A stretch of DNA of 64,000 bases from Candidatus Cloacimonadales bacterium. Its GTDB lineage: Bacteria; Cloacimonadota; Cloacimonadia; Cloacimonadales; JAFGVF01. How positions within the stretch are numbered: the stretch's first letter is position 1; each line of letters begins with the position of its first letter. Below, one piece after another: positions 15,354 to 18,300 of this stretch. The position numbers are program-made. The stretch spans positions 1 to 64,000 of the forward strand of contig CAXXOU010000004.1 in NCBI GenBank assembly GCA_963677495.2. The letters are read 5' to 3'.

Positions 15354-18300
15354 AACCTCAAGATAAGATCTCCCATGAGATTCGTTGGAGACTACAACGT
15401 GATAGGTCACAGGTGTACGTACAGCAATGTATTCAGCCGAGTGATACTAATAAATCGATCGCATTTACTGAAACTTTATATACTCTATCCCAGACAATAT
15501 AGTCGCATAGCAGCGGCTGAAGATGGTGGCAATTGCGGTGATGATACACCTGTACCCATTCCGAACACAGCAGTTAAGCTCACCAGCGTCGATGGTACTG
15601 CATTGGCAACGATGTGGGAGAGTAGATCGCCGCCATCTTCAGCCGCTGTTGACTTTTATAGACAAAGTTAGCGACAACACTTTTAATACAAAAAGGGAAC
15701 CTTTATCAGGTTCCCTTTTTTGATTGTATTACGTATTATATCTTTTGCCATATCGTAACATTAGAGATATGATAATTAAACTTTCTAGCATTCTCTCTTA
15801 TTGCGAATGAAATGTTTACAGGTTCCTTTACAAGCTCAAAGTTAAATGACAGTAGTTCTTTAATGTTCTCAAGATAGTAGACAGGTTCTCCGTCTTTTCT
15901 AAAACCACCCGGCCAATTATGCTTCTCTGCACTCTGTTCGTTCCAATCAGCAGTCGTTGCTAATACGAGAAATCCACCCTTATTAACTCTAGTTGGTATC
16001 TCATTTATGAAAGCGAGTGGGTTGTACATATTCTCAAGTGAGTTCTCTACAATTATCACATCATACTCTTTGAACTTGGTCATTAGATTTGACCCATCTG
16101 CTTGATAAAAATCAATATTATCTCTTATATTATCGAGTCCTAAATCTTTTAGATTTGCTTCAGCAAAAGAATGAATATCTCCCTCTTCACGGACAAGATA
16201 CTTAAAGATTCCATTCTTCTTGAGGTCAACACCAACTCTGAGCATTCTTGCAGTGAAATCAGCTCCTGTGACATACTTAAAGCACTTAGCAAGTTCGAAA
16301 GTAGTTCTACCAGTCTTACAGCCTAGGTTCAAAGCTTTAAGGGAGTTGCAAGCCGGAATTGAGTCAATGATAGCATCTGCAAGTTGCTGTGAGAAGTTAC
16401 CTAATCCAAGATAGTCAGGACCATAACCAAAGTCACACCATGTGATAACTTCAGGGTCCTCTTCATAAACAGAACCATGAATCTTAACTTCCTGATCAGA
16501 TTCTATATATCTAAATCCTGCATGTTGGTAGAAATGTCTTCTAAAGGCATATCGAGAATCTTTTAAAGCTTCATTACCTGTGGCTATCCATGAACCACCT
16601 TTAATCATATTATGTTGGTTATCAAATGTCGGGGTTGTGAAATCATCGTAAGCAGGATGCACTTTGAATCCATCAAAACCATAAATTGGAGTCTCTGTCC
16701 ATTGCCATACGTTACCTATTACATCGAAGAAACCATTGTTTTCAAATTTATTAACCGGACATGGAGAGCAGTAATGCTCTAAGTTTATATTTCCGGGAGC
16801 TTTCTTCCAGAACGGCTGATCATCTAACTTCAGACTATTGTAGAGAACATACCACTCTTCCTCTGTTGGCAATCTAAGCTTTTTACCGGTTGTCGCAGCT
16901 TTCCAATTAACAAATGCTTTAGCTTCTAGATAATTACACTCCACAGGCCAGTCCCACGGCATTGAAACTTCATTAAAGACAAGTCTAAGTTTAAGCTCTC
17001 CTACATCATTCCGTTTCCAGAAACGTGGCATTGAGCACTTTTCATACTGTACCCAACTCCAGCCTTCCTCTGTCCACCATTTCTGTTCATTATAACCATT
17101 AGCATTGATAAACTCTTTGAATTCTGCATTAGAGACAAGATACTTCGATGCTTTAAAGGCTTTCACTTCATGCGTAATTGTTCCATATTCATTATCCCAT
17201 CCGTAGTAAGGTGATTTAAACGGTTTGCCGAGTTGCACTGTCTCTCCATGCACAGGTAGTAATTCGTTCTTAGGTGGTTGATTACTCTCTCTACAAATAT
17301 TCCAGTAATCGTCATCATTAAGTACATCAAGAGGGAGTTGTCTAATAAGAACAGATGATGTTTCAAGATGAATTCTTGAATGCTCAATCCCCATCATAAT
17401 AATCCAAAATGGACTATCCCAATCTATAGGAAGTTGCAATGGCATAGTTTGGATAAGCTCCTCAATAAGAGTCTTCACTTGTGCTCTATATGATATAGTC
17501 TGCTCTAATGTAGGCCAATCAAAATGAGATACATTGAGATCATCCCAAGACATCTCATCAACCCCAATTGCAAACATAGATTCATACTTAGGATTGATGC
17601 GTTTCTCAATTGTTTTAGAAATCACAAGTTTATTAATATAAAAGGCAGCTGTATGTCCAAAATAGAAGATAAGAGGATGTCTCAAAGGGTCTGCTCGTAA
17701 GTAGAATGCTTCCGGTTTCAAACCTGCTAAAAGCTTCTCTTCAATAGCCCATGAAGCTCTAAAATAGTTAAGTATCTCTGTTCTTTTCTCAGCCGGCGTA
17801 CCTTTTTCAAGGTTTATAGTCTTAGTTACTTTATAATCCATACATGCCTCGCTTATGTTCTTTGTTTCTATAATTTAAGTTTTGCTAAATAAAATGTCAA
17901 AGAAAATAATAAAAAGGCTGTCTAATATAAAGACAGCCTTACAAAGAATAACTAATAATTAGCTAATGAAATAAGCTTTTAATGGTGGAAACCCATTAAA
18001 CTCTATTGCACTGTAACTCGATGTATAGGCTCCTGTGGTTAGCCAATACAGCTTATCACCTGCAGCTAATGTTAGGGGTAAAGAATATAGTGTATTCTCG
18101 TACATGATATCCTGGGAATCACAAGTTGGTCCCGCAAGAATTACATCTTCCATGACTCCACATCGTTCTGTATAAACAGGGAACTTTATGGACTCTTCAA
18201 TAGTCTCAATTAATCCTGAGAACTTTCCCACATCTGTATAAACCCAACGGTTAAGAGCTGTTCTTGATTTTCTTGAAACAAGAACCACTTCACTTACTAA

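Follow-up and report, generated by a model that had tools for sequence, protein, structure and literature searches.

The ovoA gene and its surroundings

The window, a stretch of 64,000 nucleotides from the genome of a Candidatus Cloacimonadales bacterium (G000; 99.5% complete), contains the gene ovoA between two terminator-like hairpins (Table 1). The -35 hexamer of the putative ovoA promoter is identical across the three genus members with the gene start present, while sigma-70-like sites number 27 region-wide, which is near the mean of 18.4 (sd 4.5) of shuffled sequence. An rRNA operon beside the gene is suggested by antisense ORFs and by a rise in GC at 10-16 kb.

Table 1. Features at the ovoA locus, with positions counted along the window.
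Feature	Position	Strand	Basis or remark
ovoA	15736..17841	-	701 aa; sulfoxide synthase with fused OvoA-type methyltransferase-fold domain; single copy
DinB and FGE-like sulfoxide synthase domain, N-terminal	16504..17820	-	TIGR04344 match, mapping to OvoA-Th2, conservation in 137 homologues
Class I methyltransferase-fold domain, C-terminal	15742..16467	-	TIGR04345 match; SAM core kept, presumed acceptor-site signature eroded
Putative sigma-70-like promoter (TTGACA, 17 nt, TAAATT)	17872..17900	-	Consensus match only
Ribosome-binding site AAGCGAGG	17847..17854	-	Identical in three genus members
Intrinsic terminator-like hairpin	17914..17940	-	Closes the upstream decarboxylase gene and sets ovoA apart
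Terminator-like hairpin flanked by A and T tails	15690..15720	.	Separates ovoA from the putative convergent rRNA operon
Fold-type III PLP decarboxylase (ornithine decarboxylase-like)	17959..19119	-	Neighbour, probably unrelated

The gene sits on a 1.5-Mb contig and shares kamDE synteny with two relatives (G113 and G111). Its composition is typical of the genome, with a GC content of 37.6% (55th percentile) and a GC3 of 31.2% (62nd percentile) among 1330 long ORFs. The decarboxylase gene adjoins ovoA in this genome and in G113 only and is missing there in G111 and all other loci examined. Because a terminator separates the two genes and the adjacency is limited to two genomes, we rejected the decarboxylase as a pathway partner. 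The conserved neighbours of ovoA were rejected as partners as well, since they reflect lineage synteny: a T9SS-tail protein and a helicase in the largest family of the phylum (f3), and a GlmL-like protein in the genera g2 and g3.

Conservation of the two OvoA domains

The survey had reported a full OvoA, and its scores were reproduced. The protein passes the equivalog cut-off of TIGR04344 (EC 1.14.99.52; 675.9 bits, cut-off 400) and that of TIGR04345 (276.1 bits, cut-off 170), whereas the rival models EgtB and SenA gave 168.8 bits (cut-off 360) and 152.3 bits (cut-off 420). In the synthase domain we found the iron ligands H63, H154 and H158, the cysteine-binding residues R54, Y60 and V94, the catalytic Y398, the histidine-binding F401 and T405, and the OvoA-type motif Y431-A432-F433. 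All counterparts in OvoA-Th2 (R62, Y68, H71, V102, H162, H166, Y406, F409 and T413) are present. The composite motif RxYH--DxHxHYF(Y/F)AFx (17 residues) of Kayrouz et al. is likewise matched at its non-x positions by R54, Y60, H63, D95, H154, H158, Y398, F401, Y431, A432 and F433. Among 137 aligned homologues, from which 18 partial or split matches and duplicate sequences had been removed beforehand, 10 of the 13 checked synthase-site columns are invariant and the other three are conserved in 135-136. Of 196 synthase-domain columns with a conservation of 90% or more among canonical proteins, the phylum retains 158. The median dN/dS of this domain is 0.17 over 205 unsaturated phylum pairs, a simple Nei-Gojobori estimate from pairs that are not independent of one another (G000 and G113 have a saturated dS). 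Given this conservation, ovoA very probably encodes an active Fe(II)/O2-dependent sulfoxide synthase of the OvoA type.

The C-terminal domain is different. Its SAM-binding core is kept (G507, C508, G511, R512, D528, D582 and N585); the first six correspond to G524, C525, G528, R529, D545 and D600 of EtOvoA, while the EtOvoA neighbours G599 and A601 are replaced by A581 and G583. Outside this core we defined a signature of 13 residues common to OvoA-Th2, OvoM and OvsM, including an Asp-Arg pair after strand beta4. The signature is our own and is complete in these three enzymes, none of which was used for its definition. We presume that it holds the catalytic base, judging from the class I architecture and from the work on OvoM and OvsM reported by Ireland et al. 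2025. While 47 canonical proteins keep 11-13 of the 13 residues, the window protein keeps two, 65 proteins of the phylum zero to five, and 22 OvoA proteins from Bacteroidales one to six. In the C-terminal domain, the phylum retains only 34 of the 83 columns for which canonical proteins show at least 90% conservation. The domain evolves faster than the synthase half (C/N tree-length ratio 1.78 vs 1.11), yet between G000 and G113 the respective dN values of 0.140 and 0.116 differ by a ratio of only 1.2. Proteins with the eroded domain group together in the full-length tree (support 0.92). This group is absent from a tree of the synthase domain only (83 of the 137 rows), which pairs the window protein with an Ancylomarina OvoA whose C-terminal domain is canonical.

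On balance, these data argue that methylation by the C-terminal domain has been lost, a conclusion that we favour with some reserve. On the survey's reading, the ovothiol A pathway would be the usual one, and the divergent domain of this aerotolerant anaerobe would still methylate 5-thiohistidine. Much in the domain suits a surviving methyltransferase equally well: TIGR04345 is matched above cut-off in 78 of 232 phylum genomes, the SAM core is complete (7/7) in 64 of 65 proteins and the linker Tyr is retained in 59. The fold is intact, with TM scores of 0.92-0.95 to OvoM and OvsM (0.92-0.94 to OvoM) and an rmsd of 1.4-2.5 A to OvoM; a dN/dS of about 0.31 indicates that purifying selection persists. 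Moreover, the Asp after beta4 has given way to Glu, a conservative exchange, in 37 of the 65 phylum proteins as well as in the window protein, and some signature changes may merely remodel the dimer interface, because positions 683-690 fall in the C-C dimer strand of 8KHQ. However, many members carry Ser, His, Gly or Asn in place of this Asp, the signature of three solved enzymes has decayed to between zero and five residues without a single replacement set, and the domain has been lost naturally in three genomes (missing in G006 and G026, frameshifted in G181). In addition, Bacteroidales with the same erosion have an adjacent 5-thiohistidine acetyltransferase-like gene at 16 of 22 loci, and this enzyme needs the unmethylated thiol. 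We therefore regard continued synthesis of ovothiol A as unlikely.

Another possibility is that the C-terminal domain has acquired a new job and either methylates another acceptor or acts as a SAM-sensing regulator that ties thiol synthesis to the pool of sulfur amino acids. The near invariance of the SAM-contact residues while the remainder relaxes would fit, as would retention of the domain in about 78 of the 83 genomes with OvoA. Yet a new conserved constellation is lacking: 40 columns reach at least 90% conservation within the phylum, and all but about four of them (540, 561, 589 and 650) are strongly conserved in the canonical set too, with none in the post-beta4 loop. This reading thus appears rather improbable. 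Loss of methylation, which we prefer, would leave the domain mainly a structural role, and most of the 65 phylum proteins retain several of the contacts between C- and N-terminal domains seen in the 8KHQ dimer (G646 in 63, R648 in 64, D650 in 61, E652 in 64 and E553 in 65). A stand-alone methyltransferase was not found in the phylum; every match to the C-terminal domain either falls at the ovoA locus or is a fragment from a contig end, and the genome studied here has one match.

Distribution, oxygen metabolism and partner enzymes

The description of ovoA as near-core in its family holds, with 9 of 11 relatives above the TIGR04344 cut-off and OvoA in each of the 10 family genomes with a completeness of 96% or more. 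G111 (83% complete) has the first 76 ovoA codons at a contig end (72% identical), and G112 (72% complete) is the only family genome without any trace of the gene. OvoA is not a peculiarity of this family; it occurs in 83 of 232 Cloacimonadota genomes and in four of 17 families. In f3 the gene tree groups by genus, which is the pattern that long vertical retention would leave, while the deeper branches lack resolution and place different phyla among one another. Two origins within the family, considered because the g1 proteins are 49-51% identical to those of g2/g3 and stand apart in both trees, were not shown, since an AU test (82 rows) gave p 0.51 for one family clade. A single clade for the phylum was not rejected either (p 0.17), so that a single or multiple origin is shown for neither family nor phylum.

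The oxidase, catalase, SOD, haem and quinone absences reported by the survey were confirmed in searches that each gave matches in control genomes. Neither cytochrome bd nor a haem-copper oxidase (COX1) was found in any of the 232 Cloacimonadota genomes, whereas 38 of 50 close OvoA bearers outside the phylum have cytochrome bd (50 of 72 outside loci, searched for bd only). The 12 family genomes lack haem catalase (54/232 in the phylum), Fe/Mn-SOD (5/232 in the phylum), UbiA-family prenyltransferases, by which alone quinone synthesis was gauged, and HemB/ALAD, our only gauge of haem synthesis. KatG, Mn-catalase, Cu/Zn-SOD and the beta subunit of class I ribonucleotide reductase are each absent from the one genome searched, that of the window. 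However, the paradox of missing defences was overstated, because this genome has the usual anaerobe kit against O2 and ROS, comprising a flavodiiron protein, superoxide reductase, rubrerythrin and peroxiredoxins. Class A flavodiiron protein is present in all 12 family genomes, such a kit has already been described for the phylum, and members have been reported from an oxic-anoxic interface and termed aerotolerant. Across the phylum OvoA occurs in 31 of 54 catalase-positive versus 55 of 178 catalase-negative genomes. Within the genera of f3, for genomes at least 90% complete, the Mantel-Haenszel odds ratio is 8.5 (p 0.013), in statistics that ignore phylogeny and with a trend that stems mostly from genus g11 (p 0.015; g13 p 0.20). 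The family studied here runs against this trend, having OvoA but no catalase (0/12).

For OvoB, the partner that the survey had not identified, a candidate emerged in a PatB/MalY C-S lyase (contig C2, 44366-45529), a family in which Abbott et al. placed OvoB. It scores 475 bits against TIGR04350 (cut-off 340), is unlinked to ovoA and occurs in 12/12 family genomes. We examined the locus in about 55 distinct genomes of the phylum; in five of them (G129, G138, G160, G164 and record L046), as in Sulfurovum, patB adjoins ovoA or lies one gene off. The PatB studied here is 43-47% identical to these ovoA-linked copies. The unlinked enzyme is thus probably the lyase that acts as OvoB. Its gene overlaps dapD, and it may instead serve lysine or sulfur metabolism. 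The gene also lies 3 kb from the superoxide reductase cluster, with an adenylate-cyclase-like gene in between. Searches of this genome found no stand-alone canonical methyltransferase, no EgtD (zero in G000, G113, G108 and G027, one in G043), no EanB-like sulfurtransferase and no 5-thiohistidine N-acetyltransferase (5THNAT). The latter is absent from all 232 Cloacimonadota genomes, while two held-out Proteiniphilum control genomes match at 208 and 216 bits; the best GNAT of the window genome reaches 41.6 bits, compared with 204-252 for 5THNAT members. Neither hisD nor a true cysK was found in five genomes searched; therefore histidine and cysteine must be imported.

A proposed oxygen-gated route to 5-thiohistidine and its known relatives

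That a thiol antioxidant is made only upon exposure to oxygen, as the survey proposed, stands in part. With an O2-dependent synthase under purifying selection in a lineage that does not respire O2, and with OvoA tending to accompany catalase across the genera of f3, synthesis upon O2 exposure is the most likely reading of why OvoA is retained. However, erosion of the methyltransferase half makes ovothiol A an improbable product. Our best explanation, taken as a whole still tentative, is O2-gated synthesis of unmethylated 5-thiohistidine. Transcribed alone, ovoA would yield an enzyme that forms 5-histidylcysteine sulfoxide from scavenged histidine and cysteine solely when O2 enters the cytoplasm, so that O2 would be both substrate and switch. 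The unlinked housekeeping PatB/MalY lyase would then act as OvoB and release 5-thiohistidine. The fused methyltransferase-fold domain would probably not methylate and would be retained mainly as a dimer scaffold, perhaps as a SAM binder. The likely end product, a thiol of low pKa, could give an aerotolerant fermenter a redox buffer of low molecular weight that complements its flavodiiron protein, superoxide reductase, rubrerythrin and peroxiredoxins. As far as genomes can tell, an antioxidant role upon O2 exposure is somewhat favoured, while Liao et al. see little convincing evidence that the antioxidant chemistry of thiohistidines matters in vivo. It is doubtful whether one could go further and attribute to this whole fermentative phylum without respiratory oxidase an O2-gated thiol buffer that ends at 5-thiohistidine, with the former methyltransferase as a SAM-binding pseudo-enzyme that tunes or scaffolds the synthase.

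Alternatively, OvoA might work under anoxia with another oxidant, such as peroxide or trace O2 made by the community, and 5-thiohistidine might serve metal binding or sulfur or acyl transfer. The lack of a respiratory oxidase in 232 genomes would agree with this. Thiohistidines would also be useful to these cells, because O2-independent ergothioneine routes are known in anaerobes and one member of the phylum, G043, has such a pair beside OvoA. We consider this improbable, as the iron site and its second shell are the same as in O2-dependent enzymes, catalase co-occurs, and phylum members are reported from an oxic-anoxic interface and called aerotolerant. It is still less probable that OvoA matters as an O2 sink or cysteine oxygenase and not for its thiol product. 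This would fit the indifference to the product that a lost finishing step suggests, the consumption of O2 by OvoA-Th2 at 589 per minute with about 10% cysteine sulfinic acid, and the thiol oxygenase activity of OvoA-Mtht given cysteine alone. However, the catalytic Tyr, by which coupling is favoured at the expense of dioxygenation, never varies, relatives have patB clustered with ovoA, and such a sink would spend, per O2, two amino acids that the cell cannot make. The class A flavodiiron protein of the family is a cheaper sink. Contamination, recent transfer or a decaying relic, suggested by the patchy occurrence and the mixing of phyla in the deep tree, is extremely unlikely in view of the long contig, the kamDE synteny, the genome-typical composition, the low dN/dS and the genus-level clades of f3; contamination and decay of the synthase domain are already refuted.

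A lineage without O2 respiration or SOD, often without catalase and auxotrophic for histidine and cysteine, in which the synthase is nevertheless under selection, offers a clean test of whether 5-thiohistidines protect bacteria against oxygen or have another role. As a genomic marker, ovoA suggests that contact with O2 is frequent enough to be relevant for many Cloacimonadota, a point of interest for micro-aerated digesters and redox interfaces. Furthermore, passing both OvoA models does not equal ovothiol A: about 87 of the 137 compared proteins (65 from Cloacimonadota and 22 from Bacteroidales) may stop at 5-thiohistidine or reroute it. If the further-reaching reading, with a pseudo-enzyme in place of the methyltransferase, is true, it would define an anaerobe-type OvoA subfamily and provide a present-day example of organisms that depend on O2 for a biosynthesis but do not respire it.

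Among known systems, the closest are OvoA-Th2 of Hydrogenimonas thermophila (PDB 8KHQ; Wang et al. 2023, PMC10696552) and the OvoA of Erwinia tasmaniensis. They share two-domain architecture, fold and all listed synthase active-site residues with the window protein, at 49% identity over about 700 residues. It differs from them in keeping two of 13 signature residues (13/13 in the known enzymes), in a host without respiratory oxidase and in an unlinked lyase. The stand-alone N-pi-methyltransferases OvoM and OvsM (PDB 9BXL/M/N and 9BXH/J/K) are 35% and 28% identical to its C-terminal domain and share the SAM core, but in contrast to this domain their signature is complete. AshA of Amycolatopsis (Abbott et al. 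2026, PMC13674229) has an altered active site and, with an ATP-grasp partner, makes 2-thiohistidine that goes into a dipeptide, whereas the window protein has a canonical motif and no conserved partner. Chemically related are the ergothioneine routes of EgtB-IV, EanB and MES; EgtB-IV is 37-41% identical to the synthase domain and carries the histidine-betaine motif N-W-F in place of the Y-A-F of OvoA.

OvoA with 5-thiohistidine N-acetyltransferase in Proteiniphilum and other Bacteroidota (Liao et al. 2025, PMC12631010) resembles our case in its anaerobe-type hosts and a similarly eroded C-terminal domain, and its authors report that the methyltransferase is missing from some partners. Those hosts mostly possess cytochrome bd, which Cloacimonadota do not. 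In Brancaccio et al. 2021 (PMC8433421), OvoA without cytochrome c oxidase in the 'strict anaerobes' Sulfurimonas hongkongensis and Proteiniphilum acetatigenes is called surprising, and 4% of 230 OvoA bearers are classed as anaerobic; its text and supplement contain no occurrence of 'Cloacimon'. Our literature search found no paper on OvoA in Cloacimonadota or on an eroded C-terminal domain. OvoA in 'strict anaerobes' is already published for two species, apparently assessed in that source for COX only, while here 83 genomes of one phylum lack both oxidase types; the eroded methyltransferase domain is new here.

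The ovoA gene, its synthase half and its descent

The gene ovoA stands alone in the window (see table), and its product exceeds the cut-offs of the synthase and methyltransferase models in a profile search (TIGR04344, 675.9 bits; TIGR04345, 276.1 bits), which agrees with the survey's finding of a full OvoA. On the EgtB and SenA models it scores below cut-off. Among solved proteins OvoA-Th2 (8KHQ, 782 bits) matches it best, and that entry also leads the structure matches of an AlphaFold2 model (pLDDT 91.7), followed by EgtB-IV and OvoM/OvsM. In GC and GC3 the gene is typical of its genome (3.41 Mb, 4 contigs, 99.5% complete). 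Its -35 hexamer and ribosome-binding site are identical in a second locus (L043) and in the Cloacimonadota genome G111. Its neighbours vary from lineage to lineage, and no candidate for a tailoring partner was apparent among them. Since HemB was not found in the genome, the aminomutase-bearing organism presumably depends on imported cobamide.

Features of ovoA, its surroundings and further loci discussed
Feature	Location	Strand	Remark
ovoA	15736-17841	-	701 residues
Terminator of upstream decarboxylase gene	within 117 bases 5' of ovoA	-	
Promoter-like site TTGACA-17-TAAATT	within 117 bases 5' of ovoA	-	consensus likeness
Ribosome-binding site	within 117 bases 5' of ovoA	-	
Hairpin with two tails	3' of ovoA		faces convergent rRNA operon (operon inferred)
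kamDE	window 19337-21664	-	lysine 5,6-aminomutase alpha and beta subunits; B12-dependent lysine fermentation
IS200/IS605-family transposase	window 22109-22561	-	
Flavodiiron gene with ferritin-like gene	same genome, C4:902986-904678 (L186)	-	ferritin-like gene directly 3' of the flavodiiron gene
Oxidative-stress cluster	same genome, C2, L123:12330-14253	+	desulfoferrodoxin, 65-residue winged-helix-like protein, rubrerythrin, ferritin-like protein
AhpC-type peroxiredoxin	L187:1294-2010 (same genome, C1, about 301674-302390)	-	in-frame TGA at peroxidatic cysteine position
EgtD, flavin disulfide oxidoreductase and rhodanese	genome G043, C80, L193:5341-9138	+	EgtD 333.7 bits, cut-off 290.9

Residues of OvoA-Th2 (Wang et al., PMC10696552, in excerpt) map onto R54, Y60, H63, V94, H154, H158, Y398, F401 and T405, while D95 and Y431-A432-F433 (window numbering) are the residues of a composite motif that discriminate OvoA from EgtB-IV (Kayrouz et al., PMC11030361, in excerpt). 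Among 137 homologues, 10 of 13 synthase columns are invariant (137/137) and three are kept in 135-136. With a median dN/dS of 0.17 over 205 unsaturated pairs, the synthase half is, judged by its sequence, intact.

OvoA exceeds the cut-off in 83 of the 232 genomes of the phylum. That the gene is near-core in its own family holds: 10 of 12 genomes carry it, or 11 if a contig-end fragment in G111 is counted. It further occurs in families f3 (59/98), f10 (1/1) and f12 (13/62), and in none of the remaining 13. Because the record named Ca. Cloacimonas falls within the f3 clade, f3 would be the Cloacimonadaceae. The f3 proteins form a single clade in the synthase-domain tree (SH-aLRT 99), largely sorted by genus, a pattern that suggests inheritance accompanied by losses. 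The deeper branches lack resolution, and the AU test does not reject a single clade, be it of the family (p-AU 0.51) or of the phylum (0.17). Among the best 80 of at least 593 matches, the named protein most similar to it (81% identity) is labelled Candidatus Cloacimonadales, and further Cloacimonadota come next, which places the genome in this phylum; the closest outside the phylum belong to Geobacteraceae, Bacteroidales, Desulfobulbaceae-like deltaproteobacteria, Planctomycetota and Victivallales.

The methyltransferase half

As to the designation 'ovothiol synthase', the sulfoxide synthase part stands, with its site intact, whereas the methyltransferase part probably does not. By their places in a full-length tree the 137 proteins were assigned to a canonical set (47), to Cloacimonadota (65), to divergent Bacteroidales (22) or to neither of these (3). 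Of the columns at least 90% conserved in canonical proteins, the phylum keeps 158/196 in the synthase domain versus 34/83 in the C-terminal domain. The seven SAM core positions (after Brancaccio et al., PMC8433421, in excerpt) are all kept in 64 of the 65 Cloacimonadota proteins. From the sequences of canonical proteins we defined a signature of 13 positions (window numbering: Q467, Y468, 601, D603, R604, S629, P630, T632, E683, T684, K687, Q689, H690). Judged by class I architecture, the Asp after strand beta4 is presumably the catalytic base. Canonical proteins score 11-13, and OvoA-Th2, OvoM and OvsM, which took no part in the definition, 13/13 each; the window protein scores 2, the phylum 0-5 and the Bacteroidales set 1-6. 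Tree lengths of the two domains give a C/N ratio of 1.78 for the phylum and 2.01 for the divergent Bacteroidales, against 1.11 for the canonical set. Furthermore, the proteins of two relatives (G006, G026) stop after the synthase domain, in G026 with the usual downstream gene in place, and a third (G181) has a frameshift within the C-terminal domain. No stand-alone methyltransferase domain that could compensate was found in the phylum genomes, the own genome included. Thus the methyltransferase half is, by these comparisons, eroded.

It is rather unlikely that this methyltransferase is still active: the SAM core is kept and the domain remains under purifying selection (dN/dS 0.31), but the signature is lost and some proteins lack the domain altogether. 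A repurposed or SAM-sensing domain appears less probable still. It would suit the same SAM core. In 8KHQ, hairpin contacts tie the C-terminal domain to the synthase domain of the partner subunit; several of them persist in 61-65 of 65 proteins and may be a reason to retain the fold, although the equivalents of K647, H696 and F486 are lost. Part of the signature, positions 683-690, falls on the C-C dimer strand.

Oxygen, the lyase and the proposed pathway

The survey's picture of a host without oxygen respiration was borne out. Cytochrome bd subunit I and COX1 were found in 0/232 phylum genomes each, and haem catalase, Fe/Mn-SOD, HemB and the UbiA family (the last two as probes of haem and quinone synthesis) in 0/12 family genomes each; KatG, Mn-catalase, Cu/Zn-SOD and class I reductase beta were not detected in the own genome. 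Cytochrome bd is, by contrast, present in 38 of 50 outside OvoA bearers (50 of 72 loci searched, whatever the completeness of the genomes). A flavodiiron protein occurs in 12/12 family genomes, the own copy (393 residues) with the canonical H-x-E-x-D-H iron motif. Desulfoferrodoxin and rubrerythrin, each above cut-off, and several peroxiredoxins complete the own set; read through its TGA, the AhpC-type gene would give a putative selenoprotein of 238 residues. Excerpts of earlier work report superoxide reductase in 38/46 and rubrerythrin in 41/46 genomes with no oxidative chain (Johnson and Hug, bioRxiv 10.1101/2021.10.08.463351) and term lake members aerotolerant (Williams et al., PMC8542988). 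Haem catalase was observed in 54/232 phylum genomes (e.g., L180, L181), though HemB is missing from the own family. Counting split genes, OvoA occurs in 31/54 catalase-positive versus 55/178 catalase-negative genomes; stratified by genus within f3, the association has a Mantel-Haenszel odds ratio of 8.5 (p 0.013), one genus carrying most of it. The own family is an exception to this link.

The survey had not identified an OvoB partner, but a candidate exists: the C-S lyase PatB on contig C2 (475 bits, cut-off 340), present in 12/12 family genomes. Of about 55 distinct phylum genomes inspected, 5 have patB adjoining ovoA or one gene off, as do several Geobacteraceae and Sulfurovum; with the linked copies of the phylum the own PatB shares 43-47% identity. 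OvoB, filed under MalY, adjoins only 4.4% of synthases of this class (Abbott et al., PMC13674229, in excerpt), so an unlinked lyase is normal. As the own patB overlaps dapD, we only infer that its product acts as OvoB. The patB-dapD pair lies 3 kb from the oxidative-stress cluster, on the opposite strand. A class V (EgtE/SufS-like) PLP enzyme, a possible alternative OvoB, takes the place of PatB beside ovoA in certain deltaproteobacteria and in a genome of Krumholzibacteriia (loci L061, L078, L081, L085, L088, L112).

Most likely, the cell would import histidine and cysteine, as hisD and true cysK were found in 0/5 genomes tested; on oxygen entry OvoA would couple the two, and PatB would release 5-thiohistidine, at which the pathway would end and which may buffer oxidants alongside the flavodiiron-rubrerythrin system. 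Anoxic use of OvoA with another oxidant, which would fit hosts lacking terminal oxidases but not the link to catalase, is improbable. Least likely is an oxygen sink, for which a side activity of OvoA speaks (Wang et al., PMC10696552; Cheng et al., PMC8943887; both in excerpt), whereas the flavodiiron protein of every family genome speaks against it.

Comparison with known thiohistidine systems

No paper joining 'Cloacimon' and 'ovothiol' was found; ovothiol is unmentioned in the Cloacimonadota literature examined, including the accessible parts of Johnson and Hug and of Williams et al., and so are Cloacimonadota in related literature, among the matches listed. A form with the SAM core kept and the signature lost is undescribed in the literature covered, though subscription papers, notably Ireland et al. 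2025, could contain it.

EgtD was not found in the own genome. One OvoA-bearing relative (G043) has it, with a nearby rhodanese (680-684 bits on PDB 6H98/6KTV, presumably EanB of Chlorobium limicola) and a flavin disulfide oxidoreductase between; EgtD and rhodanese form an apparent oxygen-independent ergothioneine pair.

In Bacteroidales, the eroded domain comes with an adjacent GNAT in 16/22 loci, which matches the 5-thiohistidine acetyltransferase of Liao et al. (PMC12631010), an enzyme that rejects the methylated substrate. This acetyltransferase is absent from 232/232 Cloacimonadota, with held-out controls positive. Where a 5THNAT-like GNAT lies 5' of ovoA (L055, L070-L074, L084, L090, L092, L101, L105, L107, L115, L116, L119, L120, L122), Asn mostly takes the place of the initial glycine in SAM motif I (20/22 divergent proteins), which indicates a dead methyltransferase more strongly than the Cloacimonadota sequences do.

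The OvoA enzyme family itself is known. That two strict anaerobes have OvoA while lacking cytochrome c oxidase was flagged as surprising (Brancaccio et al., PMC8433421, in excerpt), and anaerobic habitats have been mentioned (Liao et al., PMC12631010). Excerpts of two further papers describe oxygen-using enzymes for detoxification as general in anaerobes (Flamholz et al., PMC11494890) and argue that oxygen-dependent biosynthesis predates respiration (Mrnjavac et al., PMC7616280). Missing methyltransferase domains have been noted (Brancaccio et al., PMC8433421, in excerpt; Liao et al., PMC12631010), and the methyltransferase of AshA has been described as vestigial (Abbott et al., PMC13674229, in excerpt).
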